DNA from: an uncultured Thermoanaerobaculia bacterium | GTDB lineage: Bacteria; Acidobacteriota; UBA4820; DSQY01 | NCBI GenBank assembly: GCA_964507185.1 | Contig: CAZDOY010000007.1 | Location: 39,260-103,259 of the forward strand | Direction of reading: 5' to 3' | Length of the DNA: 64,000 bases | Shown: piece after piece, positions 6,815 to 54,376 of the stretch | Layout: the number at the start of each line of letters is the position of its first letter | Numbering within the stretch: position 1 is the stretch's first letter | The notes under the pieces: model-generated | The model's input: only the letters and a program-made list of their open reading frames with translations | Databases searched by the model: none | What the model was told of the DNA's origin: nothing | Position numbers and translations under genes: made by a program

Positions 6815-7879
6815 ATGCCTGAATCAGTCCTGATAGCCATGTCGGGAGGGGTCGACTCTTCCGTTGCGGCACTTCTTCTTGTTGAGCGGGGGTATCGCGT
6901 CGTCGGCGTGACGCTCCGCCTGTACGATTCCTGCGGAAACCCCGCGGCCAGGAGCTGCTGTGGTATCGAAGACACTTACGATGCCCGTTCCGTGGCCGGA
7001 AGGCTCGGCATAGAGCACCGCGTCCTCGAGCACCAGGCTGCCTTCGAGCGCCTCGTCATCCAGCCGTTCGTGACTGACTACGCGGAGGGCCGTACGCCCA
7101 ACCCCTGCATTCTCTGCAACGAGAAGGTCAAGTTCGGGACGCTCTGGGAATACGCGAGGGCTAACGGTTTCGACGCCATCGCCACGGGCCACCACGCCCG
7201 GCTGCTGCGGGATGGCGGAAGGGTCGACCTCGTTCGGGCCACGGATCGGGCCAAGGACCAGTCCTACGTCCTCTTTCCGCTGACGTTGGAGCAGCGCCGC
7301 ATGACCCTTCTGCCGGTTGGCGAATGGACGAAGGAGGCCGTGCGGGGGAAGGCCCGCGAAATCGGCCTGCCCACGGCGGACAAAAAGGAAAGCCAGGACA
7401 TATGCTTCGTCGCCGGCGGCGAGTACGCCGATTACGTGGATAGGCACCTGGAGGAGCGTAAGCCGGGATTTATCCGGGATCTCAAGGGGCGCGCGCTGGG
7501 GACCCACGACGGCATCCACCGCTACACCGTCGGCCAGCGTCACGGCCTGGGCGTCCCGGCGGCGCACCCGCTCTACGTACTTGCAATCGACGCAGAGTCG
7601 GGCGATATTACGGTCGGCCCGAAGGGCGCCCTCGGCGTCAGCCGTTTCCTGGTGAAGGACTGGCACTGGCACCTGGCCCCGGACGACGGGTCGATGGAGC
7701 TTTCCGTTCAGGTCCGCTACCACCAGTCCCCCCGACGCGCGCATCTGGAGCAACGGGACACCGGCGTAGTGGTAGAATGGTTGGACGGCCCGTCGGGGGT
7801 AACCCCCGGACAGGCCGCCGTCGCCTACCGGGGAGACACCGTCGTGGGCGGGGGCTGGATTGTCGGGAGAATGCCATGA
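6815..7879 (+). CDS. mnmA: tRNA-specific 2-thiouridylase MnmA
   Basis: MPESVLIAMSGGVDSSVAALLL...PCILCNEKVKF...; PP-loop SGGVDSS motif. Confidence 0.9.
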   Translation: MPESVLIAMSGGVDSSVAALLLVERGYRVVGVTLRLYDSCGNPAARSCCGIEDTYDARSVAGRLGIEHRVLEHQAAFERLVIQPFVTDYAEGRTPNPCILCNEKVKFGTLWEYARANGFDAIATGHHARLLRDGGRVDLVRATDRAKDQSYVLFPLTLEQRRMTLLPVGEWTKEAVRGKAREIGLPTADKKESQDICFVAGGEYADYVDRHLEERKPGFIRDLKGRALGTHDGIHRYTVGQRHGLGVPAAHPLYVLAIDAESGDITVGPKGALGVSRFLVKDWHWHLAPDDGSMELSVQVRYHQSPRRAHLEQRDTGVVVEWLDGPSGVTPGQAAVAYRGDTVVGGGWIVGRMP

Positions 7880-25796: not shown

Positions 25797-25811
25797 TGGC
25801 ACGGAGATTGC
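25797..25811 (+). promoter_or_regulatory. sigma-54 (-24/-12) promoter TGGCAC-N5-TTGC upstream of minor pilin operon
   Basis: tggcacggagattgc matches consensus TGGCAC-N5-TTGCW exactly; GAGGAGG SD and ATG 25836 follow. Confidence 0.55.
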
Positions 25812-25835
25812 CTAACCTTAATAGAGGAGGCATAT

Positions 25836-26426
25836 ATGCGCGAAGGGGGCCGGCAAGACCCGAACTCTAAAGCATTGGGTTTCACGCTGCTAGAAGTCCT
25901 TGTCGTGGTCGCGATCCTGGGGCTCATCGCAACCATTCTCACGGTGGCCGTCAGCAACGCGATCAAGAGGCAGCGGCTGGACACGGCCGCCCAGCAGTTG
26001 CGCAGCTTCATGGACAGAGCCTACGTGTCGACGACACAGACGGGAAACGGCATATTCGTTCAGATCGGCGCGGAGCGGACGGACGGGTCCAGGCTCGTGA
26101 GGCTCATAGAGGACAGCAATTCGAATAAGACGCTCGACAGTACGGACCAGGTCCTGGCGACGGAAACCATAACGAGTGATCTCGTCCTGTCCAATTCCTC
26201 CACCGCGGCAACCGCCTGGCCCGTTATCGGCGGCTCTCTGGTGATGCTCTGCGACTCAATGGGGCGGGCCATCAATCCGAACACGGGCCTCCAGATTTCC
26301 CAGGACCTTACGATTTCATTGACGCACACCGACATGACGGGATCCGGTACGTTAACCCCAAGGCTTCGGTACGACATCCGTCTGTACCCACTGTGGAGCC
26401 CGTCTTTGACCGAGGTGAGACTATGA
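25836..26426 (+). CDS. type IV pilus minor pilin / pseudopilin (FimT/GspH-like) with prepilin N-terminal methylation motif
   Basis: ...KALGFTLLEVLVVVAILGLIATIL... class III signal peptide. Confidence 0.7.
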   Translation: MREGGRQDPNSKALGFTLLEVLVVVAILGLIATILTVAVSNAIKRQRLDTAAQQLRSFMDRAYVSTTQTGNGIFVQIGAERTDGSRLVRLIEDSNSNKTLDSTDQVLATETITSDLVLSNSSTAATAWPVIGGSLVMLCDSMGRAINPNTGLQISQDLTISLTHTDMTGSGTLTPRLRYDIRLYPLWSPSLTEVRL

Positions 26427-41433: not shown

Positions 41434-42725
41434 ACTACGCACAGTCCCTGCGCTATCTCGATTCTCTCATCGAGTTCGGCGTCAAGACCGGCATTGAGCA
41501 CACGGCCCGTCTCGCGGCGCAGATGGGAAACCCCCAAGACGAATTTCCGAGTCTTCTCCTCGCCGGAACGAACGGCAAGGGATCGACGTCGGCTTTCCTG
41601 GCAACCATACTGGCAAAGGCGGGCTACAGGACGGGGCTCTACACGTCGCCGCACCTTGTCAACGTGGAAGAACGCATAGCGGTGGGCGGCCGCCCCATCA
41701 GCAGGACGTGCTTTTCAGAGTCGATGACCCGCGTCAGGGAGGCGGCGGAGAATGCCATTTCGGCAGGCCTCGTGGAGGGACAGCCCACCTACTTCGAAAG
41801 CCTGACGCTCGCCTGCTTCGACCACTTCAACCGGTCCCGAATCGATATCGGCGTTCTTGAGGTCGGCCTGGGCGGCAGGCTGGACTGCACCAACATCGTC
41901 CATCCCATCCTCACGGGGGTGACCAATGTCGGACTGGACCACGAGCAGTATCTCGGGTACGGCCTGGCCACCATCGCGAAGGAAAAAGCGGGCATCTTCA
42001 AACCCAGGGTGCCCGCCCTGACGGCAGCCGATAGACCGGTTGTCCTGGACGTCCTGAGGCGCGAAGCCTTCAAGGCCGGCACGACCCTGAGCCCTCAGGA
42101 CGGTTCGATTGAGACGGACGTGGGTGTGTGGCGGCTCATCGATGGTGAGGGCACCATGGAGCTGCCCTATCCATCGGTGCCCGGCCGGCATCAGCTGACA
42201 AACGCCACGCTGGCGGTCAGGTGCTGCCGGGTGCTGCGCTCCAAGGGATGGCGCATAGACGACGAGGCCATCCGATCCGGCATCGCGGAGACAAGATGGC
42301 CCGGCCGGCTGGAGCGCGTGGCCGACGCGCCCGATACTTATCTCGACGGTGCGCACAATCCCGACGGGTGCGAAATCCTGGCGGAATTTGTCCGGGGGCT
42401 CCCCCATCCGAGAAAGGCCCTCGTCTTCACCGCCATGAGGGACAAGCCGTTGAATGCCATGTCGTCCCGCTTGTTTCCGGAATTCGGGGCCGTCTGGGCG
42501 ACGTCCCTCCCCATGGACAGGAGTTGCACTCCAGAGGAAATCCTGGCCGGCTCCGGGCGCCGGAATCTCATGCTTGACGGTGACCCTTTGTCCGCCATGG
42601 AAAAAGCCCGGACGTGGGCCGGAGAAGGCGGCCTCGTCATCGCGGCGGGGAGTCTCTATCTGGTCGGGTACCTTGAAGCGGTCCTCGGCGGGTTGTCTCG
42701 TGCGTCCTGGGGCAGCGGCCTGTGA
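41430..42725 (+). CDS. folC: bifunctional folylpolyglutamate synthase / dihydrofolate synthase
   Basis: ...[35 protein letters not shown]... Mur-ligase fold; ATGA overlap with accD (conserved accD-folC linkage). Confidence 0.85.
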
Positions 42726-42820
42726 TACCCCATTCCTGGTGTATTGCCGACTTCGTCCCCCGGCAAAACACTGCAGGCGTGCCGTTCTTCAGGGGGCTGT
42801 CCCGTCTTGCCGGCGAGTTC

Positions 42821-43654
42821 TTAAACCAGGAAGACTCCGGCCATCGCGCAGGCGCTCGTTTCGTCCGGCCTCAACCGCCGGGGCTCCTCCACCATGACGC
42901 GGGTTCCCAGGAGACGAACGACCGTCCTGACCTCTTCCAGGTCGTCAGCCTTGAAATGGAAGACGAACCCGCGACCGGATCTCTCGACCTTCTGTTCCTC
43001 GCACATTTGTAGGTCCGCCACCCAATCCTCCGTCTTCTTGAACCGGATCGTCACGTGATGCCTTGTTCCGGATCGGATCCAGCCTCCGGAAGACCGGACT
43101 CTCTCGTCGCCGAATGGGGAGGGCTCCTGCATCTCGGGGCCCGGTTCCGCCCTCGAGATCGTCGAAACGGGGATATTCATGAGGGCGTCGGAGTCTGTGC
43201 GGGATGCGAACAGGTAGAGATCCCCGCGAAGCCGTGAGAAAAAATACGGGCGAATGTTGCGTGCGACCATCGTATCGCGAGGCCCCAGCAGCGATACGGT
43301 GAGGGTTCGACCTTCGTAGAGGGCGTGGTGCACGATTTCTAGGTTCCGCCGCACCGCCTCCATCGAGAAGGTCCTGGATGCCGGGCTGAGCGCATAAGGA
43401 CGGCAGGTGACGTCCGCGGCGAAGTCGACCGGAGCCACCGGGAGAGCGTAATAATACCCCCGATCCTGATCGTGCGCGATGGGCAGCCCCATTCTCTGCT
43501 TCATGAAGGCCAGGTCCCTGCATACGGTCCTCACCGTGACGCCCAGCTTCTTGGAGATGGAATCGAGCGTGTGCCGTCCCTCGGCGCGCAGCAGCACATC
43601 TATGACGGCGACCCGCTTTCTGGTGGCTTTGAAACGAACCGGTGGCATGTGCAC
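42821..43654 (-). CDS. WYL-domain transcriptional regulator (HTH + WYL + C-terminal domain), paralog 1
   Basis: MPPVRFKATRKRVAVIDVLLRAEGRHTLDSISKKLGVTVRTVCRDLAFMKQRMGLPIAHDQDRGYYYALP; clear paralog of 45751-46602. Confidence 0.7.
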   Translation of the reverse strand: MHMPPVRFKATRKRVAVIDVLLRAEGRHTLDSISKKLGVTVRTVCRDLAFMKQRMGLPIAHDQDRGYYYALPVAPVDFAADVTCRPYALSPASRTFSMEAVRRNLEIVHHALYEGRTLTVSLLGPRDTMVARNIRPYFFSRLRGDLYLFASRTDSDALMNIPVSTISRAEPGPEMQEPSPFGDERVRSSGGWIRSGTRHHVTIRFKKTEDWVADLQMCEEQKVERSGRGFVFHFKADDLEEVRTVVRLLGTRVMVEEPRRLRPDETSACAMAGVFLV

Positions 43655-43906
43655 GACCTCCTTCCGAGAAAGCAGAATGGAGCATGATGCGTGCCACGTG
43701 GCCGAATCTCAGTATCTGTTGTTAATCAAAGAGTTAGAGGTGACCTGGCGCATCCCGTCGTTAACGCGTGAACGACGAAGTGTAAAGTTCCCTTAACATT
43801 TTGCATTACCGTGGGTGCAATTCGGGAGGTGGAGTCGGGCGGCGCGGTGTTGTCGCGCGTGTGCAGTCTTCGATCCGCCTGTCTGATTTGGCGCTCCACG
43901 GCCGGA

Positions 43907-45589
43907 TCAGGTCCGCTTGAAGTCTCGTGCGCGGATGCCCAGAGTTCGAAGATATTTGGAAAGGGTCTGCCGCGTCACGCCCAGCAGGTCGGCCGCCCGG
44001 GTCACGTTGCCTCCGGTGCTGGCGAGCGCCTCTCTGATCGCCGTCGCCTCGGCCGCCCTGCGGCGAACTTCCATCCGCACGCCCGGGGCGTTTTTTGTTT
44101 CGGCAAGCCAGGCACGAACCTGGGGCGACAGGTGACGGGTCTGGATGATTCCGCCGGAATCCGCGAGGTGGTAGGCCCTCTTCAGCTCCATCTTCAACTC
44201 TCGCACGTTGCCCGGCCACCCGTATTCCGTGACCGCCCGGAAGGCCTCCAGAGAGAGGCCCTGGACGTCCCTGGCCGAGGAGGCTTCGTTCTCCTCCAGA
44301 AAGAGATCCACGAGCGGCGGGATCCAGCGCCTCCTCTCCCGCAGGGGGGGGATGCGGACCTCTGCTCCGCGCAGCCTGTAGTAGAGGTCCTCGCGAAACT
44401 CACCGCGCCGGATGGCCTTTTCGAGGTTCTGATTGGTGGCCGAAAGCCAGCGCACTTTGAGCGGCACTGCGGCCCGGCTGCCCAAGGGGTATATCTTCGA
44501 GTCCTCCAGAACCCTCAGCAGTTTCGCCTGTATGTGCAGTGGAATCTCTCCGACCTCATCAAGGAGAACGGTGCCTTCGTTCGCCGTTTCCAGTTTGCCT
44601 CGGCGACCCAGGACACCGGTGGCCGTGTTCGGCTGGATGCCGAACAGTTCGCTCTCGAAGAGCGCCTCCGGTATCGCTGCGCAGTGGATGACCTGGAAAG
44701 GGGCCTGTTGGCCCATGGAAAGCTGGTGGATCGCCCGGGCCAGGACTTCCTTCCCTACGCCCGTTTCGCCCGTGATCAGAATGGGCAGGTCGCTTGCAAC
44801 GAGCCTCTCGACCTCTTCCCACGGGCCGTCCAGACCGACAAGCGAAGGCGGCTTCGGGTTCCGTCCGCCCTGCGGCTCGGCACCGATCTGCCTGGTGGCA
44901 CCTACCCGGACCTGAACGGCCTCCAGGATGTTCAGGAGGGTCGGCAAAACCGATTCGGTTTCTTCCCCGCCGCCCGTCCAGCGACAGGTCCATGTCCCCC
45001 GGACGCCTTCCAGATCGATGGATTCCGCCTGTTCCGGCGCGGTGCGCCACAATCCGGGGAGAACGCACCGTTCTTTACCGTCGCCGCGCTGTATGATCTC
45101 GAGATCCGACAGTCCCAGGATCCTCCGCCACCGGTTTCCCCAATCGCGACTTTCCGTGTAGGCGCGGATGCACGCATTGAGAATGCCTGCGGAACCCGCT
45201 TTTGATGAGAATGATGCCGCATCCGGGCTCTCGCCGGTGTGCATCCTGGCCGGAAGGGACGGAGACAGGCCTCCGGGAGTCCGCCAGTCCAGGGTCGATT
45301 CCTTTTGGACGAAAATCCAGACGGAACCGAGGGTCAGTCGGTCGCCCTCTTCGAGCCGGTCGTGGTCGAGACGCTTGCCCTCCCGGCTCACGCCCAGGCG
45401 GGAATCGCAGTCCCGAACGTAAAGTTCACGGCCCTGTTCCCCGGCGAGCATGAACTCGCAATGTCTCCGGCTGATCCCCGGCACGGGCAGAATCACGTCG
45501 TTTGAAGGATCCCGGCCCACACTGAGAAAATTCTTGGTGACGGGGACGGACAAACCGTGCGCTTCACAATGAAAGCGAAGGACCCACAT
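43907..45589 (-). CDS. FHA-domain / AAA+ (sigma-54-interaction type) / Fis-HTH enhancer-binding-type regulator with degenerate GAFTGA loop
   Basis: N-term FLSVGRDPSNDVILPVPGISRRHCEFMLAGEQGRELYVRDCDSRLGVSREGKRL (FHA); ILITGETGVGKEVLARAIH (Walker A); ESELFGIQPNTATGV where canonical ESELFGHEKGAFTGA is expected; C-term ...GNVTRAADLLGVTRQTLSKYLR. Confidence 0.8.
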   Translation of the reverse strand: MWVLRFHCEAHGLSVPVTKNFLSVGRDPSNDVILPVPGISRRHCEFMLAGEQGRELYVRDCDSRLGVSREGKRLDHDRLEEGDRLTLGSVWIFVQKESTLDWRTPGGLSPSLPARMHTGESPDAASFSSKAGSAGILNACIRAYTESRDWGNRWRRILGLSDLEIIQRGDGKERCVLPGLWRTAPEQAESIDLEGVRGTWTCRWTGGGEETESVLPTLLNILEAVQVRVGATRQIGAEPQGGRNPKPPSLVGLDGPWEEVERLVASDLPILITGETGVGKEVLARAIHQLSMGQQAPFQVIHCAAIPEALFESELFGIQPNTATGVLGRRGKLETANEGTVLLDEVGEIPLHIQAKLLRVLEDSKIYPLGSRAAVPLKVRWLSATNQNLEKAIRRGEFREDLYYRLRGAEVRIPPLRERRRWIPPLVDLFLEENEASSARDVQGLSLEAFRAVTEYGWPGNVRELKMELKRAYHLADSGGIIQTRHLSPQVRAWLAETKNAPGVRMEVRRRAAEATAIREALASTGGNVTRAADLLGVTRQTLSKYLRTLGIRARDFKRT

Positions 45590-45750
45590 GTACTCCCCCG
45601 ATTCTTGATGGCAAAGGGGACCCCGGCCGGCGGCCGCAGTTCCATACTCTTCAGTTTAGCACAGGGCCGCGCCGTGCCCGGGTCAATCCTCGCCCAGGGT
45701 CGGCGTTCTCCACGACGCTGAGACCGGACGGAGACTTCTCCCCGAGACGG

Positions 45751-46602
45751 TCAAGGCCGGTCGCCCTCCGGCCGGGCGAAGTTGTAGGCTCGCAGCATTC
45801 TCAGCAGATGGAACCGGAGCAGCGATCTCAGGATTGCCGGTTCTTCGACCGTTACGGTGTCTCCCAGGAAGAAGACCAGCCGCCTGACCGCCTCGAGATC
45901 GTCGGTGCGGAATCGGATCGTGATGTGAGAGGTGGTCGTTTCGACCACCTGTCCGTCGGCCATCTGTAGGTCCCGGGCCCATGCCGGGGAAGAGGGGAAT
46001 CGGAGACTGACCTTATAGAGAGAACCGCTCTTGATCCAGCCCTCGCCATCCTTGACCTTGATCTCGCTCAGAGGCGGATCGAGGAATCTGTCGGCGAGGA
46101 CCGCGACCTTGCTCAAATTCTGCACGGGTATGTTGACGAGTTCGCGGCGATCCGGGCGATAGGCGAAGAGGGTCAGGCGCGACGCGACGCGGGAAAGAAA
46201 GTGGGGGTGCAGGATCCACGAAACATCCTCGCCGCCTTCCCCTGCGATTGTTACGGTGATCTTCTTCTGCCCGTACAGGGCGGAGTGTATCTTCTCGAGA
46301 ATTGCCACCGTGTCACGGGAACTCTGCCGCATGGGACGCTTCGGCGGCGCGCTTCTGAAGTCCCGGTTTTCCGTGTCCTCGAGGGGGGGCACGGGCAGGG
46401 CGTAGTGGTACCCCCTGCCGTAGCTGTGTTCGATGGGCAGGCCCATTTCCTCCTTCATGTAGGAGATGTCCCGGCAGACGGTCCGCTGGGTCACCATCAG
46501 GGCCTCGGCCAGGCTGGCCAGGGTATTGGACGTATTTGATCGAAGCAGCCGGTCGATCTTGCTGGCGCGCTTCTGGACGGATTTGTATTTTACGGGTGCC
46601 AT
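45751..46602 (-). CDS. WYL-domain transcriptional regulator, paralog 2 (283 aa)
   Basis: MAPVKYKSVQKRASKIDRLLRSNTSNTLASLAEALMVTQRTVCRDISYMKEEMGLPIEHSYGRGYHYALP; GGAGG SD before ATG 46602. Confidence 0.7.
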   Translation of the reverse strand: MAPVKYKSVQKRASKIDRLLRSNTSNTLASLAEALMVTQRTVCRDISYMKEEMGLPIEHSYGRGYHYALPVPPLEDTENRDFRSAPPKRPMRQSSRDTVAILEKIHSALYGQKKITVTIAGEGGEDVSWILHPHFLSRVASRLTLFAYRPDRRELVNIPVQNLSKVAVLADRFLDPPLSEIKVKDGEGWIKSGSLYKVSLRFPSSPAWARDLQMADGQVVETTTSHITIRFRTDDLEAVRRLVFFLGDTVTVEEPAILRSLLRFHLLRMLRAYNFARPEGDRP

Positions 46603-46810
46603 GGTTACCTCCAGGTGCTTATCCAGCAAGGTTGTTGCCTGACGCGCCAAGGCTGATAAGACCTTTATCGTCATGTAGTTAAGCCCTGTGGCTGCGTCCG
46701 TGCGGCCTCTCTCCAAAGGCGCCCACATCCATATAGTAGAGATAAGCCTCTTAATTTCAAGAGATTGAACTGTCGTTCGTGGTTGACGTACGGAACCGCC
46801 GCCGAACGGC

Positions 46811-47314
46811 TCAGCGCTCGAAGCCGAGGACGCCGACGTAGTGCCGGATTTCCGGGTCCGCGTTCCCCCGGCGGAACATGACTGACACAACATCGCCCCG
46901 CAGTCGGGAGAGCGAATGGCCGTTTCTCCGGCAGTAAATCTGTCCGGCGAGCAGAACCCGCCTTCGCTTTCTGGCGGTTACGGCCTGGGCGGGTGTGCCG
47001 AACCTGACAGAGCGCCTGGCCTTGACCTCGATCACGACGATCAGCCCTTCGTGTGCGGCCAGTATGTCGGCCTCTCCGCCTTTCACGCTGTAGTTTCTCG
47101 CCAGGACTCGGTATCCTTTGTTCTCAAGGTGGCGTGCTGCGAGCCTTTCACCCAGGGCGCCGATCTTCCCGGGGGCCACCCTCACCTTCAGCTTTTCCAG
47201 AAGGCGTCCGAGCCACTCCGATTTGACGCCCGGGATGAACCGGGTGCCGGGGTGCCTTTGGAAAGAGCGCGCCCGCTTGCTCCCGGACTGCCTGAGAAGC
47301 GTCATGCGAATCAA
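46811..47314 (-). CDS. yraN: YraN/UPF0102-family protein (PD-(D/E)xK nuclease-like fold)
   Basis: ...GERLAARHLENKGYRVLARNYSVKGGEADILAAHEGLIVVIEVKARR... matches UPF0102 core. Confidence 0.65.
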   Translation of the reverse strand: MIRMTLLRQSGSKRARSFQRHPGTRFIPGVKSEWLGRLLEKLKVRVAPGKIGALGERLAARHLENKGYRVLARNYSVKGGEADILAAHEGLIVVIEVKARRSVRFGTPAQAVTARKRRRVLLAGQIYCRRNGHSLSRLRGDVVSVMFRRGNADPEIRHYVGVLGFER

Positions 47315-47841
47315 TGCCCCCGCTGGCCTGGTGGCCTTCTGCCCTGAAAGCGGCGTCGCGGCCCTTCCCCGCCCCTCATCTGTTGCATGAGGTCCCGGCG
47401 CATGATGAGGAACTCTGCCTGCTGTCGTGGCGTGAGTCCGGCGAGGAGTCGGGACTCCAGGTCCCTCAATCGTTTCTCGAAGCTGGCCTGTTGGGCTTGG
47501 AAGTCGGCTACGTCCCGAGCCAGGACCTTGTCGGATGTTCTTCCGTCTTCGATGTGCGCCTGGATCCTGGACATGATATCCATCATCGCCTGCCGGTGGC
47601 GGGCGCGTTCCCCGTCGATGGCCTTGAGGACCTCCATCGCCTTGAGCGTTTGCGCATCCGTGAGAGACAGTGTTTCACGCATCCGCTGAATGAGGTATAG
47701 CCTCGCGATTTCCCGTCTGTGATGACCGTGCCCCTGCATCCGTTCGACGGGCGGAGCGGGGCCATCCGGTGGGGGCGCCTGGGCGGGGACACTCAGGCAG
47801 AAGGCGCTGAGAAGAAGTGCGAACAAGCAAGCTCTAACCAT
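47311..47841 (-). CDS. periplasmic Spy/CpxP-like (LTxxQ motif) protein
   Basis: signal peptide MVRACLFALLLSAFCLSVPAQA; LTDAQTLKA and LTPRQQAEF LTxxQ repeats. Confidence 0.55.
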   Translation of the reverse strand: MVRACLFALLLSAFCLSVPAQAPPPDGPAPPVERMQGHGHHRREIARLYLIQRMRETLSLTDAQTLKAMEVLKAIDGERARHRQAMMDIMSRIQAHIEDGRTSDKVLARDVADFQAQQASFEKRLRDLESRLLAGLTPRQQAEFLIMRRDLMQQMRGGEGPRRRFQGRRPPGQRGH

Positions 47842-48367
47842 TCCATCCTCCTGTGTCAACCGGACCGAGATAATCCTCGAGGTCTTCGGCCGACTGCTTT
47901 TCAACCTGGCCCCCCACGGATGATTCTGTAAGGTTTAGCAGCGCAACCGTCGAATCCTCGGTGGTCCCGTACGCCAGCGTGCCCAAACCTCGGCTCACGC
48001 TTTGCTGCTCCTTGATCGAGAGGTTCGCCTGGATCGACCGACCCGGGCTCTCGAGCCGGAGGACCGATAGCGAACCTGTCAGGCCGGCCGCCAGAATGAA
48101 CACCGCCGCCGCCGCTCGCCAGGGAAGGGATCTCGAAGTCCGCGCCCCGGGCTTTGTGGCCGCAGCAACCGTCTTGGCGATCAGCTTCGTCTCCCATTCC
48201 GCGTCCCGGGAGAGGACCGGTGACGCACCCGCCATCTCTGCACCCAGCGCCCGCAAATCATCGATCTCCCGCCGGCACCGGCCGCAGTGCTCGATGTGTT
48301 GCTTGACCTCGGCCGGCATGAGGCCGGAGCCGGTCAAAGCCAGCCTTACAGCTTGATCATGCGTCAC
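47834..48367 (-). CDS. membrane-spanning zinc-finger anti-sigma factor
   Basis: HIEHCGRCRRE (H-x3-C-x2-C ZAS motif), one TM (AAAVFILAAGLTGSL); overlaps upstream ECF sigma gene. Confidence 0.6.
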   Translation of the reverse strand: MTHDQAVRLALTGSGLMPAEVKQHIEHCGRCRREIDDLRALGAEMAGASPVLSRDAEWETKLIAKTVAAATKPGARTSRSLPWRAAAAVFILAAGLTGSLSVLRLESPGRSIQANLSIKEQQSVSRGLGTLAYGTTEDSTVALLNLTESSVGGQVEKQSAEDLEDYLGPVDTGGWNG

Positions 48368-48917
48368 AAGACACCTCCAGCGTCTTTCGGAGGTTTCTCA
48401 GTCCGAAGAAATAGTGAGCCTTCACCGTTCCCTCGGCAAGCGACAGCACCTCCGCGATCTCCCTGAAAGATAGATCCAGCCACGTCCTGAGGATGACCAC
48501 CGAACGCTGCTGGGTCGGCAGGGTCTTCAGTACCCGCCTCAACCGGATGTTCCGTTCTTCCTCCAATGTGTCCGAATCGGGGGAACGGCCCGGGTTCCGT
48601 CCTTCCGGCACCTCTCCCGTCAGGATCTCGCGCTGAACGGTGGCCGACGCCAGGTGATTCAACGCGAGATTGTGGCCGATGCGAAAGAGAAAGGACCTGG
48701 TCGAACAGTCCCCGCGAAAGGAATCCAGCGAAGTTGCGAACCGCAGGAATGTTTCCTGGGCCAGTTCTTCCGCATCCGCCCGGTTGCGGACCATGCCCGC
48801 CAGGTACCTCACCAGCGGCGCCGTATGCGCTCTTACAAACGCCTCCAGGGCATCCTGGCGCTTTGCTTTTATATCGTCCAGCCATGGGTCTTTTGCCTCG
48901 GCCATAAAGTCATCCAC
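48357..48917 (-). CDS. ECF (sigma-70 family group 4) RNA polymerase sigma factor
   Basis: region 2 ...AEELAQETFLRF... and region 4 ...LSFREIAEVLSLAEGTVKAHYFFGLRNLRK. Confidence 0.85.
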   Translation of the reverse strand: MDDFMAEAKDPWLDDIKAKRQDALEAFVRAHTAPLVRYLAGMVRNRADAEELAQETFLRFATSLDSFRGDCSTRSFLFRIGHNLALNHLASATVQREILTGEVPEGRNPGRSPDSDTLEEERNIRLRRVLKTLPTQQRSVVILRTWLDLSFREIAEVLSLAEGTVKAHYFFGLRNLRKTLEVSCDA

Positions 48918-49060
48918 CCTAAGTGACCATGGTACGGCAGGAATGGTTTAATGATAACCGCCCCGTCCGGTCCCGTCCCGCTGTGAAACAAGACACAGCA
49001 CATGTGACAGAAACGACACATTGCAGAAACAATTCTTTAGTATTATCAAGAGTTAGGTTC

Positions 49061-49075
49061 TGGCACGCCCCTTGC
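49061..49075 (+). promoter_or_regulatory. sigma-54 (-24/-12) promoter TGGCAC-N5-TTGC upstream of lpxC
   Basis: tggcacgccccttgc exact consensus; GGGAGG SD and TTG start 49100 follow. Confidence 0.45.
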
Positions 49076-49099
49076 TAAAGGGGGCCAGGGAGGTGGTAC

Positions 49100-49993
49100 T
49101 TGTACTACCAGAGGACACTGAAACACGCCATCGAATGCAGCGGGATAGGTCTTCACTCGGGACGCAAGGTCTCCATGCGCCTCCTCCCTGCTCCGCCCGA
49201 CACGGGTATCGTTTTCCGGAGGGTGGACAAGGAAGGCTTTGAAATTCCGGCCAACTCGAACTACGTACAGAGAGTCGACTTCGCGACGACGCTTGGCTCC
49301 AGCGGGCTTCAGGTATCGACGGTCGAACACCTGCTCGGGGCTTTCTACGGTATGTGCGTGGACAACGTCGTCGTGGAGATAAATGCAGCCGAAGTCCCGA
49401 TCATGGACGGTTCGGCGGCGCCCTTTGTCTACCTCATCAGGGAGGCTGGGGCCATCAATCAGAACAAAACCAGGCGCTATTTTCGGGTGACGCGCCCCCT
49501 GGAAGTCCAGGAGGCGGACCGCTGGATCAAGATACTGCCCTCGGAGGAACTCCGGGTCACCTACACCATCGCCTTTGCGCACCCGCTGATCTACGAGCAG
49601 ACGCTGACTATCCCCATCAACGCCGGCACCTTCGTGGACCAGATCGCGCCGGCCCGGACCTTCGGTTTCATGAAGGACGTCGAAGCCCTCCGGGTCAGGG
49701 GGCTGGCGCTGGGCGGTTCCGTCGACAATGCCATCGTTCTGGGCGAGAGCCGCGCGCTCAACGCCGACCTCAGGTTCATCAACGAGTTCGTCCGGCACAA
49801 GATTCTCGACGTTCTGGGCGATCTCTCCCTGGCCGGGTATCCCCTCAAGGCGCATATCCTGGTCCACAAAGGCGGGCACCGCCTCCACACGGACATGGCC
49901 AAGCTCATCAACCGGTCCTCCGCCTTCAATGCAATAGAGTCTTCAGGGGAAGAGTCCACCGCTGCCCTGCGGTTGGCTCCCCCTATGGCGTAA
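49100..49993 (+). CDS. lpxC: UDP-3-O-acyl-N-acetylglucosamine deacetylase
   Basis: (M)YYQRTLKHAIECSGIGLHSGRKVSMRLLPAPPDTGIVFRRVD... aligns residue-for-residue with LpxC N-terminus; TTG start. Confidence 0.9.
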   Translation: MYYQRTLKHAIECSGIGLHSGRKVSMRLLPAPPDTGIVFRRVDKEGFEIPANSNYVQRVDFATTLGSSGLQVSTVEHLLGAFYGMCVDNVVVEINAAEVPIMDGSAAPFVYLIREAGAINQNKTRRYFRVTRPLEVQEADRWIKILPSEELRVTYTIAFAHPLIYEQTLTIPINAGTFVDQIAPARTFGFMKDVEALRVRGLALGGSVDNAIVLGESRALNADLRFINEFVRHKILDVLGDLSLAGYPLKAHILVHKGGHRLHTDMAKLINRSSAFNAIESSGEESTAALRLAPPMA

Positions 49994-50215: not shown

Positions 50216-52591
50216 TCAGCCCTTCTCTTCGATCGGTTCGCTGTACTTGCAGGCCTTTTCGGGGCACGCCTTGACCGGCCCGCTCTTCGTCTGGCGTTCG
50301 ATAAGATAGGGACTGCCGCAGGTGGGACAGGGCCCCGGCAGAGGTTTCGACCAGGAGATGAAGTCGCACTCAGGGTAGCCCGTACAGCCGTAGAAAAGCT
50401 TCCGCCTCTTGGTAAAGCGCTTGGCCAAGGGCTTTCCGCACTTGGGACACGGTGTTTCCACCGTCTCCTTCTGGATGTATTTGCAGGTAGGGTAGTTGGA
50501 ACACGCGACAAATGGGCCATAGCGGCCGTGCTTCTTCACGAGGTTCGAGCCGCATTCCGGGCATTTCTCTTCCAGGGGCTCGTCTTTGGCCACGACCACG
50601 CTGCCCGATTTGTCCTTTCGGATCTTCAGCGTGTATTTGCATTCGGGGTAACGCTCGCAGGCCAGAAATGCGCCGTAACGCCCCTGGCGTACCGCCATGG
50701 GGCTCCCGCACTTTTCACACGTTTTGGCGTCCTCGGGCACCTCGGGAGGCTTCTCGTCGGGCAGGGGGCGGGTTCCCTTGCATTCCGGGTAACCGGAACA
50801 GGCGAGAAAGCGTCCGAATCGGCCCATCTTGAGGACCATCGGGCGTCCGCACTTGTCGCAGACTTCGTCGGTCGCCTGGCCCTCCTTGCGGAGGTCCACC
50901 ATCTCACCCTTGGCCGCTTCGAGCTCCTTGTGGAAGTCCGTCCAGAACCGCTCCAGCAGTTTCTGCCGGTCCATGGCCCCGTTTTCGACTTTGTCGAGGT
51001 TCTCTTCCATGGCGGCCGTGTAACCGATGTCGAACAGCGCGGGGAAGTGCTTGATCAGGATCTGGCTGACCAGCATGCCCATGTCGGTGGGCACGAGGGC
51101 ACCCTTTTCCTTCTCCACGTAGGTTCGTTCCTGGATCGTCGAGATGATGGTCGCGTAGGTGGAGGGCCGTCCGATGCCGTTCTCCTCCAGGGCCTTCACG
51201 AGGGTCGCCTCGGTGTAGCGGGGGGGCGGCTCGGTGAACTTCTGCTCCGACTTGAGATCGAGCAGCGTCAGACTCTCGCCCTGTGTGAGGGGAGGTAACA
51301 CGCCCTTCTCGTCGTTTTCCTCGACCTCGTAGACCGCGAGGAACCCCTGGAAGCGGCAGACGGAGCCAGAGGCGCTGAACAGGGCGTCGCCGCACGCCGC
51401 CTGTACCTTCGTGGCGTCGAAAAGGGCGTCCGCCATCTGGCTCGCAACGAACCGTCGCCAGATCAATCGGTAAAGGGCGAACTCGTCGCGGCCCAGATAG
51501 GGTTTCACGCTTTCGGGCGTGCGTCCCGCATCGGTGGGGCGGATCGCCTCATGGGCGTCCTGAGCCGCCTTCTTCGGCGCGTACAAACGGGGCTTCGGAG
51601 GAAGGAAGTCTCCGCCGAAGGTTTCCTGCACGAACGCCCTGGCCGCATCCACCGCCTGGGGTGAGACGCGGGTCGAATCGGTCCTCATGTAGGTGATGAG
51701 TCCCACCGTCTCCCCTCCGGCCAGGTCGACGCCCTCATACAGGCGCTGGGCCACGGACATGGTCTTCTTCACCGGAAACTTCAGAAGCCTGGCCGCCTCC
51801 TGTTGCAGTTTGCTCGTGATGAAAGGCGGAGACGGGCTCTTCTTCTGCTTCTTCTTTTCCAGCTTCGCGACGGACCAGTCCCGGTCTTTCAGGTGCGCCA
51901 GCAACGCATCGTTTTCTTCCGCGTTGCGTATCTGCGACTTCTTGCCTTTCCACTGGGTGAGCCTGGCGTCGAAAGGCTTGGCCCGCCCACCTTCGCCGCA
52001 CAGCGAGGCGGTTACGGCCCAGTATTCTTCGGGTTGAAAGGCCCGGATGGTGTCCTCCCGCTCGCAGATCATCCTGAGGGCCACGGTCTGTACGCGTCCG
52101 GCCGACAGGCCCTTGCGCACCTTGTCCCAGAGCAACGGCGAAATCTGGTATCCGACGAGGCGGTCGATGATGCGGCGGGCGATCTGAGCGTTGACCTTCT
52201 GGGGGTCCACCTCTATGGGGTGGGCGACGGCGGCCTTGACCGCGGAAGAAGTAATCTCGTGAAAGAGGACGCGCTCGATGGGTTTGCCCATCTCTTTCAA
52301 GAGCTCTGAAAGGTGGTAGCAGATGGCCTCTCCTTCCCGGTCGGGGTCTGCCGCAAGGAGGATGGTGCCGGCTCTGGAGGCGGCCGTATGGATCTTGCTC
52401 ACGACGCTCTTCTTCGCGGGGAGAACGACGAAGGTGGGACGGAAATTCTTGTCCACGTCCACGGCCAGTTTATTGCCGGGAAGGTCTCGCACGTGCCCCA
52501 TGGAGGCCATGACGGAAAAGCCCTTGCCCAGGTATTTCTGTATGGCCCTTGCTTTGGCCGGCGATTCGACGATCAGGAGTGTGTCTGCCAT
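50216..52591 (-). CDS. topA: DNA topoisomerase I with multiple C-terminal C4 zinc ribbons
   Basis: MADTLLIVESPAKARAIQKYLGKGFSVMASMGHVRDLP... TOPRIM; repeated CxxC...CxxC ribbons at C-terminus. Confidence 0.9.
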   Translation of the reverse strand: MADTLLIVESPAKARAIQKYLGKGFSVMASMGHVRDLPGNKLAVDVDKNFRPTFVVLPAKKSVVSKIHTAASRAGTILLAADPDREGEAICYHLSELLKEMGKPIERVLFHEITSSAVKAAVAHPIEVDPQKVNAQIARRIIDRLVGYQISPLLWDKVRKGLSAGRVQTVALRMICEREDTIRAFQPEEYWAVTASLCGEGGRAKPFDARLTQWKGKKSQIRNAEENDALLAHLKDRDWSVAKLEKKKQKKSPSPPFITSKLQQEAARLLKFPVKKTMSVAQRLYEGVDLAGGETVGLITYMRTDSTRVSPQAVDAARAFVQETFGGDFLPPKPRLYAPKKAAQDAHEAIRPTDAGRTPESVKPYLGRDEFALYRLIWRRFVASQMADALFDATKVQAACGDALFSASGSVCRFQGFLAVYEVEENDEKGVLPPLTQGESLTLLDLKSEQKFTEPPPRYTEATLVKALEENGIGRPSTYATIISTIQERTYVEKEKGALVPTDMGMLVSQILIKHFPALFDIGYTAAMEENLDKVENGAMDRQKLLERFWTDFHKELEAAKGEMVDLRKEGQATDEVCDKCGRPMVLKMGRFGRFLACSGYPECKGTRPLPDEKPPEVPEDAKTCEKCGSPMAVRQGRYGAFLACERYPECKYTLKIRKDKSGSVVVAKDEPLEEKCPECGSNLVKKHGRYGPFVACSNYPTCKYIQKETVETPCPKCGKPLAKRFTKRRKLFYGCTGYPECDFISWSKPLPGPCPTCGSPYLIERQTKSGPVKACPEKACKYSEPIEEKG

Positions 52592-53703
52592 TCATTCGGC
52601 TCCTTGGGTGATGTCCTGCGGGCATACCGCGTACCGGGCAATTCTACACATAGCCCGGCCATTTGCAACTCGACAAGGACCGTGAGAATGTCCGGGGCGG
52701 ACAGGCCGGACTCGACGCTCAACCGGTCTATGCTCCTCCCCTCGTCCGCGCTCATCGCATCAAAGAGAACGCGCGCCTTGGCGGACAATGCCGAGTCTCC
52801 GCCCTCGGTCCCGGCGGGAATATCGTTAAGAGGTTTCAATCTGCAACATGTGTCTGGGGGAAATTCTTCCAGGACGTCGGCGACTTGCTGGACCAGCTTG
52901 GCACCCTTCTGAATAAGAGTATTCGGGCCTATGCCGGTACGGCTGGTGATGTTGTGAGGCACGGCGAAGACCTCTCGTCCCGTTTCAAGTGCGAAACGAG
53001 CAGTGACGAGAGACCCCGACTTTTCGGTCGCCTCGACGACCAGTACCCCTGAAGTCAGACCTGAAATAACGCGGTTTCGAACGGGAAAATTCCTCGGAAG
53101 GGGCGGCGTCCCAGGCGGGTACTCGCTGATGATCGCCCCGCCCCTGTCCAGGATATTCTGCATAAGCCCATCGTTTTCAGGCGGATATATTCTGTCTATA
53201 CCCGTGCCCAGGACGGCGGCCGCGTGTCCTTCGACTGCCAGGGAACCCTGATGGGCGGCCGTGTCAATACCGCGCGCCAGACCGCTCACGACTGCCATTC
53301 CGGCGTACACGAGTTCCTTCGCCAGCGTCCTTGCGACGTTCTGACCGTAGACGGTGCACAGCCGGGATCCGACCACCGCGATCGCGGGCAGGGAGAAAAC
53401 CTCCAGGGACCCCTTAACGTACAGCGCGGGCGGGGGATCGGGCAGACTGCGGAGAGACTCCGGATAGCCGGGATCGTCCCATGAAAGGATGGTAACGCCC
53501 TCCTTTTCCGCCGCTCGATCCGCTTCTTCGGCGCCCTCCCAGTCCAGTTTGGCAAGCGACTTGCTTATGTTGGGGTGTAGTTTCACGGGGCGGGCGCCTT
53601 CCCTGAGGGAACGAAGCAAGGCCTTCTTCCCGAGCAGTTCGGCCCTGAGGACGGTCGATAGGGATGTCAAGCGCGTCAGGGCGCTGTAAAGATAAGGTTC
53701 CAC
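52573..53703 (-). CDS. dprA: DNA processing protein A (Smf)
   Basis: ...AVVGSRLCTVYGQNVARTLAKELVYAGMAVVSGLARGIDTAAHQGSL... Rossmann-like DprA domain; conserved dprA-topA linkage. Confidence 0.85.
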   Translation of the reverse strand: MEPYLYSALTRLTSLSTVLRAELLGKKALLRSLREGARPVKLHPNISKSLAKLDWEGAEEADRAAEKEGVTILSWDDPGYPESLRSLPDPPPALYVKGSLEVFSLPAIAVVGSRLCTVYGQNVARTLAKELVYAGMAVVSGLARGIDTAAHQGSLAVEGHAAAVLGTGIDRIYPPENDGLMQNILDRGGAIISEYPPGTPPLPRNFPVRNRVISGLTSGVLVVEATEKSGSLVTARFALETGREVFAVPHNITSRTGIGPNTLIQKGAKLVQQVADVLEEFPPDTCCRLKPLNDIPAGTEGGDSALSAKARVLFDAMSADEGRSIDRLSVESGLSAPDILTVLVELQMAGLCVELPGTRYARRTSPKEPNEWQTHS

Positions 53704-53788: not shown

Positions 53789-54376
53789 ATGGTATCGAGA
53801 TCTTATTTTGAACAGACGGCTCTGGTTCACATCGACTTCCTGTACAACCTGGCCCTCAAGATAACCCGCAACGAGGACGACGCCCAGGACCTGGTGCAGG
53901 AGACCTACCTGCGTGCCTATCGCTTCTTCGACAAGTACGAGCCCGGGACAAACTGCAAGGCCTGGCTCTACCGTATCATGAAAAATACCTTTATCAACCA
54001 CTACAGGAAACAGCACCGCAGACCGAGTGAGGTGGACTTCGATTCCATCGAGGAGACGCAGGAATCTCACGTTCGGTCGGATAGTTCATGGCCCCAGAAT
54101 CCGGAACAGACGCTGATAAATTCGATCATCCGCGAGGACGTTCGAAACGCCTTCCTCCAGTTGCCCCAGGGATATCGTGAAGCTCTGGCACTGTCCCTGT
54201 TGGGAGGTAAGTCCTACAAGGAGATCGCGGACATGATGGACTGCCCCATCGGAACCATCATGTCGCGCATCCACCGCGCCCGCAAACTCATGCAGAAGCA
54301 ACTGACGGAGCACGCCGAGGAAAAGAGCTGGGTCGTACCGTCCGAAGCCACCCAACAGCTCGCCCAGGGCGCGTAG
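53789..54376 (+). CDS. ECF RNA polymerase sigma factor (SigR/RpoE-like)
   Basis: ...DAQDLVQETYLRAYRFFDKYEPGTNCKAWLYRIMKNTFINHYRK... and ...KSYKEIADMMDCPIGTIMSRIHRARKLM. Confidence 0.85.
   Translation: MVSRSYFEQTALVHIDFLYNLALKITRNEDDAQDLVQETYLRAYRFFDKYEPGTNCKAWLYRIMKNTFINHYRKQHRRPSEVDFDSIEETQESHVRSDSSWPQNPEQTLINSIIREDVRNAFLQLPQGYREALALSLLGGKSYKEIADMMDCPIGTIMSRIHRARKLMQKQLTEHAEEKSWVVPSEATQQLAQGA

Follow-up and report, generated by a model that had tools for sequence, protein, structure and literature searches.

What does a bacterial enhancer-binding protein (bEBP) do when the phenylalanine of its GAFTGA motif is replaced and the genes on both sides of it encode WYL-domain regulators? The question is raised by a 64-kb stretch of DNA (the window) from an uncultured Thermoanaerobaculia bacterium of the Acidobacteriota (contig CAZDOY010000007.1), which we compared with related loci numbered L001-L021. 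In the window, a gene for a 560-amino-acid (aa) activator with FHA, GAF-like, AAA+ and Fis helix-turn-helix (HTH) domains (43907-45589) separates the genes of two regulators of winged HTH (wHTH)-WYL-WCX architecture, WYL-A (42821-43648; 275 aa, ATG start, MPPVRF…, with an alternative GTG start at 43654) and WYL-B (45751-46602; 283 aa, MAPVKYK…). A YraN/UPF0102 gene of the PD-(D/E)xK family (46811-47314) lies upstream of WYL-B, and all four genes are on the minus strand, confirming the gene calls of the preliminary description of this DNA. The system is best explained as a signalling cascade encoded on the chromosomes of a small group of Acidobacteriota; its middle gene encodes a bEBP with an xxA[TS]GV L1 loop. 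We give somewhat better than even chances to a cascade running from a kinase through the FHA/GAF-like xxATGV activator to sigma-54 promoters of the flanking WYL genes, and from there to a WYL regulon.

The L1 loop of the activator is a conserved variant and not a decayed GAFTGA motif. Pfam profiles matched Sigma54_activat (PF00158; 3.8e-53), AAA_lid_14, an N-terminal FHA domain (1.4e-13; approximately nt 45302-45589) and the Fis HTH (HTH_8, 1.9e-10; approximately nt 43955-44059), with the AAA+ domain at approximately nt 44108-44821, all on the minus strand. The RtcR/PspF models of PADLOC matched the AAA+ and HTH region, and all 35 PDB relatives at E<=1e-20 are bEBPs. The Walker A motif GETGVGKE, the arginine-finger region and the Fis HTH noticed earlier are present, as are Walker B and sensor II, and K280, D344/E345, R399/R405 and R463 are invariant across 20 relatives. 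When the protein is aligned without gaps to A. aeolicus NtrC1, the loop NTATGV (residues 321-326; nt 44612-44629, minus strand) falls exactly on GAFTGA, so the suspected loss of the motif, including its Phe, is real: Phe is replaced by Ala and three further positions differ. All 14 orthologues have the form xTA[TS]GV, and remoter relatives have G[VTA]A[TS]GV; xxA[TS]GV occurs in 31 of the 120 best matches, some of them lacking an FHA domain, and the variant is kept across proteins just ~30% identical. Fixed in orthologues and shared by distant relatives, the loop thus marks a constrained subclass. Together with the invariant catalytic residues, its strong conservation points to a constrained interaction surface.

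The Phe of GAFTGA is treated as a hallmark of true sigma-54 activators, and both annotation and regulon prediction depend on it. Its replacement by Ala was initially taken to place the protein among the sigma-54-independent relatives, an assignment that is opposed by the conserved loop subclass, by -24/-12 elements at both WYL genes and by a precedent. DVUA0100 of Desulfovibrio vulgaris Hildenborough, a predicted type III secretion regulator with the loop GVATGV, is encoded in a type III secretion operon that depends on sigma-54 (Kazakov et al., PMC4641369). Its substitutions were judged probably not to prevent activation, and activation of sigma-54 promoters was predicted for it (PMC4641369). 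Among the other xxATGV loci that we compared, a -24/-12 element is present in L012 (one mismatch, at the next gene) and in L020 (before the activator gene itself), and weaker sites are present in L011 and L018.

The DNA upstream of WYL-A suggests a link between the activator and its neighbours. A sigma-54-type -24/-12 promoter, TGGCACGcatcATGCT (43681-43696, minus strand), lies 32 nt before the ATG of WYL-A and has one mismatch to TGGCACG-N4-TTGCW. The element is found at the same place in L009, L013/L015, L005, L007, L017, L001 and L002-4, with invariant GG and GC columns in intergenic DNA of otherwise ~50% column identity. In L002-4 it stays with the WYL gene despite the kinase gene inserted after the activator. 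Further upstream, an 18-bp palindrome, TGTtAA-N6-TTTACA (43781-43798), is centred ~95 bp from the WYL-A -24 GG and is the sole match with <=1 mismatch in the window. Its register is constant in all related loci and both arms change symmetrically, with the variants TGTAAA…TTTACA (L005, L007, L009, L015), CGTAAg…TTTACG (L017) and, twice, CGTCAA…TTGACG (L002). Such symmetric compensatory changes are the signature of a dimer-binding site. The ~95-bp spacing is typical of an enhancer and falls within the ~80-150 bp from a -24/-12 promoter that is usual for bEBPs with a C-terminal Fis HTH such as this one has, which makes the palindrome a putative upstream activating sequence for the activator; it may alternatively be a WYL operator.

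A second inverted repeat, CGTCGTT-N8-AACGACG (43756-43777), lies 23 bp from the palindrome centre. It is exact in the window and L009 and has one arm mismatch in L015; L005 and L007 have the block CGT[CT]AA.CG at this place, and conservation is thus limited to close relatives. This repeat had been proposed earlier together with one upstream of WYL-B. The former is exact and lies ~6 nt from where it was first placed; the latter is imperfect, ~25 nt off and not conserved. Between the palindrome and the WYL-A -24 element, an A/T-rich stretch (about 43715-43735) resembles the IHF consensus WATCAANNNNTTR in L005, L007 and L017 (1 mismatch by eye), with a weaker resemblance in the window.

The region upstream of WYL-B has a less perfect sigma-54-like element, aGGCAacaaccTTGCt (46625-46640, minus strand), 22 nt before the ATG. 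Its GG/GC spacing is correct, with three mismatches to the consensus, and it is weaker than the WYL-A site. CAGGCA-N6-TTGC is kept in five lineages; it is found in L013, L005 and L007 and even in L017, where the rest of the intergenic region cannot be aligned. A consensus scan additionally found a sigma-70-like promoter, TTGAAA-16-TACTAT (46733-46760, minus strand), within a block conserved in the window, L013, L005 and L007. The repeat reported earlier at WYL-B reads cttatcag (46653-46660) / ctggataag (46618-46626); we rejected it as an operator, as it is already degraded in the 91%-identical relative L013. The site TGTCGTTCGTGGTTGACG (46771-46788), which precedes the -24-like element of WYL-B by ~140 bp, has a CGTCAA half-site in common with the L002 palindromes. 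The degenerate palindrome YGTMAA-N6-TTKACR (<=2 mismatches) shows no statistical enrichment in the window (15 observed vs 9.7 expected), and this site is therefore at most suggestive. Upstream of the activator gene, an extended -10-like element, TGTGCTAAACT (45653-45663, minus strand), conforms to TGTG[CT]TA[AG]A.T, common to the window, L005 and L007, with TGATGTATACT in L002. On this consensus, the activator gene would have a sigma-70-type promoter. Rfam searches of 42000-49500 returned nothing credible, and a terminator scan found no excess over shuffled sequence and no terminator in intergenic DNA.

Sigma-54 sites elsewhere in the window suggest that the organism has a working sigma-54 regulon. 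The pattern TGGCACG-N4-TTGCW (<=1 mismatch) occurs 4 times in the window against 0.51 expected, a count reached by 0/100 shuffles; the enrichment is a property of this stringent set and disappears when 2 mismatches are allowed (6 vs 8.4 expected). An exact-consensus site, TGGCACGccccTTGCT (49061-49076, plus strand), lies 23 nt before lpxC (49100-49993) and is conserved in L001, L002-4, L009 and L013. Sigma-54 dependence of lpxC would be unusual. A near-consensus site (25797-25812, plus strand) precedes by 23 nt an open reading frame (25836-26426) that is type IV pilin-like and has a prepilin N-methylation motif, and pilin genes are a classic sigma-54 target. These enriched and conserved sites, including the pilin-like one, are the ground for supposing such a regulon. 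A further -24/-12 element (53550-53565, plus strand) is situated within dprA (52573-53703, minus strand) and is followed, after ~220 nt, by a second extracytoplasmic function (ECF) sigma open reading frame (53789-54376); the position of the element is conserved in L001 and L002-4. A copy of the palindrome motif with 2 mismatches lies at 53685-53702.

The input of the activator is likely linked to Hanks-type kinases. Kinase genes adjoin the orthologous or a related activator in four independent contexts. In L002-4, the activator and WYL genes are separated by a Pkinase+TPR gene; in L018, the kinase is operonic with the activator orthologue, the start and stop codons overlapping; in L012, it is divergently transcribed from a GVATGV relative; and in L021, it shares an apparent operon with a GVATGV-class FHA activator. 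The kinase signal supposed in the preliminary description gains support from gene order in these loci, not from the window itself. The apparent operon of L021 (1040-8997) comprises the FHA activator, a CHASE2-Pkinase gene, a 291-aa protein and a TPR-CHAT protein. The FHA domain is not the only input domain of the window activator, as had been thought: residues ~130-234 (approximately nt 44888-45202, minus strand) fold as a GAF-like domain. At ~105 aa this domain is short, and no similarity in sequence to the GAF domains of relatives was detected (hhalign probability 0.4%).

The bracketing of the activator by WYL genes is conserved beyond the window. The activator orthologues span 46-100% identity to the window protein, and the closest genome record is L009, an uncultured Acidobacteriota metagenome-assembled genome. 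Two WYL genes bracket the activator in the window, L009 and L013/L015 (94-100% identical), in L005 and L007 (67-68%) and in L017 (54%). A single downstream WYL gene is present in L001 (48%), the order is activator, Pkinase/TPR kinase and WYL in L002-4 (53%), and the orthologues of L008, L018 and L019 (46-51%) are non-syntenic and have no WYL gene. The WYL-activator-WYL bracket, part of the neighbourhood that the preliminary description had marked for checking, recurs in four lineages, with activator identity of 54-96%. An FGE-sulfatase-family gene adjoins the non-syntenic activator orthologue in L008 (6908-7816) and L018 (1203-2336), preceded in L018 by TGGCGTaagttTTGCT. Apparent frameshifts affect the activator gene of L009 (about 7594-7596) and WYL-B of L005/L006/L010 (about 2286 in L005); they are either assembly errors or signs of pseudogenisation.

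The two WYL genes are old duplicates that have since evolved at different rates. WYL-A aligns with WYL-B across 264 aa at 41% identity (E 3e-63), and the two are therefore paralogous along their whole length, which upholds the paralogy first seen in their HTH regions and extends it to the full proteins. In a neighbor-joining tree, the downstream WYL copy of L017 falls in the A clade (67% bootstrap) and its upstream copy, weakly, in the B clade (42% bootstrap). On this tree, the duplication is older than that split and therefore no recent tandem event. In a comparison of the window with L009, WYL-A is 84% identical, WYL-B 99%, the activator 96% and the neighbouring genes 92-100%, so that WYL-A is by far the fastest-changing gene of the locus (window 42821-43648 vs L009 8001-8825). 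WYL-B is the slow-evolving paralogue, 75% identical to its copies in L005 and L007. The subfamily is rare: 17 cluster representatives were found at E<=1e-30 among 1.84 billion proteins, beyond which scores fall sharply to ordinary ~325-aa WYL regulators. Peptide-pattern scans of genomes and metagenomes returned 2 and 4 loci, respectively, all of the same clade.

Both proteins belong to the wHTH-WYL-WCX regulators and lack a residue of the ligand groove. Pfam found HTH_11 and WCX in each; the WYL model was just below threshold in WYL-A (21.3 vs 21.8 bits) and not detected in WYL-B. The WYL profile of PADLOC matched both (WYL-A 2.7e-14, WYL-B 6.4e-12). Sequence-profile searches against PDB chains, with the whole protein or the WYL-WCX region, found no WYL structure, whereas in a fold search with the AlphaFold model of WYL-A (predicted local distance difference test score 74) the 30 best PDB matches were PafBC, DriD, CapW and BrxR, with a probability of 1.0. 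The subfamily has no ~50-aa helical linker and is ~45-50 aa shorter than typical WYL regulators. Aligned with eight typical WYL regulators, WYL-A has Thr and WYL-B has Asn where the …F-x-x-x-R-[IV] strand otherwise carries a near-invariant Arg. This groove Arg is absent from every member of the subfamily, the preceding Arg is Met or Val, and the Tyr of the WYL motif is kept in A-type and not in B-type proteins. The altered positions appear to map to R211 and R214 of PafB. The groove arginines of PafBC are needed for binding single-stranded DNA (PMC11804915), and the missing Arg thus suggests that the ligand of WYL-A and WYL-B may not be single-stranded DNA. PafBC is stated to be the sole heterodimeric WYL regulator reported (PMC11804915); the retained A/B pair is therefore a candidate second PafBC-like heterodimeric pair.

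The surroundings of the locus are those of a core genome. YraN (Pfam UPF0102, PF02021, 1.8e-23; NCBIfam YraN, NF009154, 113.5 bits vs a cutoff of 109) closes a run of overlapping genes for an ECF sigma factor, an anti-sigma factor, a Spy/CpxP-like periplasmic protein and YraN itself (46811-48917, minus strand), and the end-to-end overlaps suggest a single operon. The order from the ECF gene to YraN is the same in L001, L002, L005, L009, L013 and L017; in L001, the gap between YraN and the activator gene is just 33 nt. Around the locus, a housekeeping block runs from dprA-topA through lpxC, the ECF operon with YraN and the regulators to folC and accD; WYL-A occupies the ancestral position adjoining folC, and GC content is uniform across the region.

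In the cascade that we propose, the activator gene would be transcribed from its own sigma-70-type promoter, and the FHA domain of its product would take input from a Hanks-type Ser/Thr kinase, presumably encoded elsewhere in the genome and, in relatives, next door. The activator would bind the conserved palindrome ~95 bp upstream of the WYL-A -24/-12 promoter, and its ATP hydrolysis would drive sigma-54 RNA polymerase at both WYL promoters. The promoters on which this last step depends are indicated by sequence and conservation for WYL-A and more weakly for WYL-B. WYL-A, fast-evolving and, on this model, inducible, and WYL-B, slow-evolving and with an extra sigma-70-like promoter, might then act, more speculatively, as homodimers or as a PafBC-like heterodimer on a regulon. 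A bolder form of this proposal holds that xxA[TS]GV bEBPs are a distinct and widespread class driving sigma-54 promoters without the GAFTGA Phe, and that in this clade one of them, controlled by a Hanks kinase via its FHA domain, turns on a second PafBC-like heterodimeric WYL pair with an arginine-less WYL domain that responds to something other than single-stranded DNA. We put this forward only tentatively and consider it rather unlikely as a whole.

Several observations weigh against the proposed cascade. An Ala at the Phe position is expected to be inactive by the textbook mechanism, as PspF loop mutants are, and F85Y was reportedly the one substitution that retained activity in the work of Zhang and colleagues in 2009. 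The findings on PspF are the weightiest objection to activity: its GAFTGA residues F85 and T86 make contact with region I of sigma-54, and all loop substitutions tested abolished open-complex formation (PMC3467059). In the window activator, the Asn of the FHA S-x-N-G turn is Leu, and no orthologue retains this Asn, which may make phosphopeptide binding atypical. The palindrome may be a WYL operator instead of the activator's site; its most divergent copy (L002) occurs with the most divergent WYL recognition helix. Neither an rpoN box nor a Hanks kinase motif was found within the 64-kb window. The orthologues of L008 and L019 and the GVATGV relative of L021 have no nearby WYL gene, and no good -24/-12 element was found near them. 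The WYL-activator linkage has been seen in one syntenic block only, and shared ancestry could account for part of it.

The loop raises the possibility that the AAA+ protein is uncoupled from sigma-54 and either activates or represses in a sigma-70-dependent manner or occupies the enhancer as an anti-activator, with a canonical activator encoded elsewhere firing the WYL promoters. The Ala in place of Phe, the three further differences in the loop and the inactive PspF mutants fit this possibility, as does the existence of sigma-54-independent members of the family (TyrR, Rhodobacter NtrC and HupR, VpsR, Caulobacter NtrC). We nevertheless judge it unlikely. The loop is neither deleted nor drifting, as xxA[TS]GV is fixed even where proteins share just 30% identity; no ATPase residue is lost; sigma-54 promoters lie on both sides of the gene in all syntenic relatives; a GVATGV protein, DVUA0100, is tied to sigma-54 operons (PMC4641369); and a single Sigma54_activat gene, without any second activator, was found in the 64-kb window. 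It is also conceivable that the adjacency has no functional meaning, a housekeeping block from topA, lpxC, the ECF operon and YraN to folC and accD having been inherited intact in one clade while the activator has its targets elsewhere. The flanking genes are indeed the same at all WYL-linked loci, orthologues of similar identity in L008, L018 and L019 lack a WYL gene, and the WYL subfamily is very small. Against this, intergenic DNA of ~50% conservation has retained both the -24/-12 element and the palindrome, in sequence as in spacing, the promoter remains with the WYL gene after the insertion of the kinase gene, and the bracket persists down to 54% activator identity, which leaves an adjacency without function quite improbable. 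The suggestion that the WYL pair gates a defence, stress or toxin module fares worst. WYL regulators often accompany defence systems (PMC9122601, PMC9122588); the PADLOC WYL models match both proteins, and YraN, of a family with a PD-(D/E)xK-type fold, could be imagined as the nuclease effector of BrxR/CapW-type repressors. However, PADLOC matched neither YraN nor any other neighbour as an effector, YraN passes the housekeeping NCBIfam model and stands last in an ECF sigma operon, synteny is that of the core genome with uniform GC, and the canonical WYL groove Arg is absent. We regard a defence role as highly improbable.

The locus offers a natural test of whether the GAFTGA Phe is necessary, as a Phe-to-Ala subclass that makes up about a quarter of the retrieved relatives is placed here between genes with -24/-12 promoters. 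If the activator works, the GAFTGA rule would have to be relaxed and the contact between L1 and sigma-54 revisited. If the xxA[TS]GV class as a whole drives sigma-54, this would imply that the class engages sigma-54 region I in another way. Should the activator prove inactive, the locus would instead exemplify an anti-activator that occupies an enhancer. A literature search for WYL proteins together with sigma-54 returned the CARF/RtcR connection only, and the joint occurrence of Hanks kinase/FHA signalling, sigma-54 activation and WYL regulators is not described in the literature searched.

Each part of the system has known counterparts. FHA-domain bEBPs of Myxococcus xanthus were reportedly described by Jelsbak and co-workers in 2005. 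These and the FHA-GAF-AAA+-HTH proteins that are common among Acidobacteriota and Myxococcota have the same order of FHA, GAF-type, AAA+ and Fis HTH domains as the window activator and, like it, genomic linkage to Hanks kinases. They differ from it in the loop, which is GAFTGA or GAYTGA and not NTATGV, in its short GAF-like domain and in the change of the FHA Asn to Leu. DVUA0100 resembles the window activator in the Phe-to-Ala and final Ala-to-Val changes of L1 and in its co-localisation with predicted sigma-54 promoters (PMC4641369), whereas its N-terminal region is uncharacterised, with no FHA domain reported, and its targets are different. RtcR-type CARF-AAA+-HTH activators (Makarova et al. 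2014, PMC4012209) likewise couple a sensing module to a sigma-54 activator core; in the window activator, the input is FHA plus GAF-like and not CARF, and the WYL sensor is on separate regulators that are apparently its targets. The mycobacterial DNA-damage activator PafBC, like DriD, CapW and BrxR, shares the wHTH-WYL-WCX architecture and fold with WYL-A and WYL-B, and PafB and PafC are likewise two paralogues in one locus. In contrast, WYL-A and WYL-B are shorter, their groove Arg is replaced, their genes are split by the activator and preceded by -24/-12 promoters, and their locus has no DNA-damage or defence context. TyrR, R. capsulatus NtrC, HupR, VpsR and Caulobacter NtrC also have a non-canonical GAFTGA position. 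These sigma-54-independent relatives act at sigma-70 promoters, and their motif has been deleted or is free of constraint, whereas the loop variant of the window activator is conserved and the promoters next to its gene are of the -24/-12 type.

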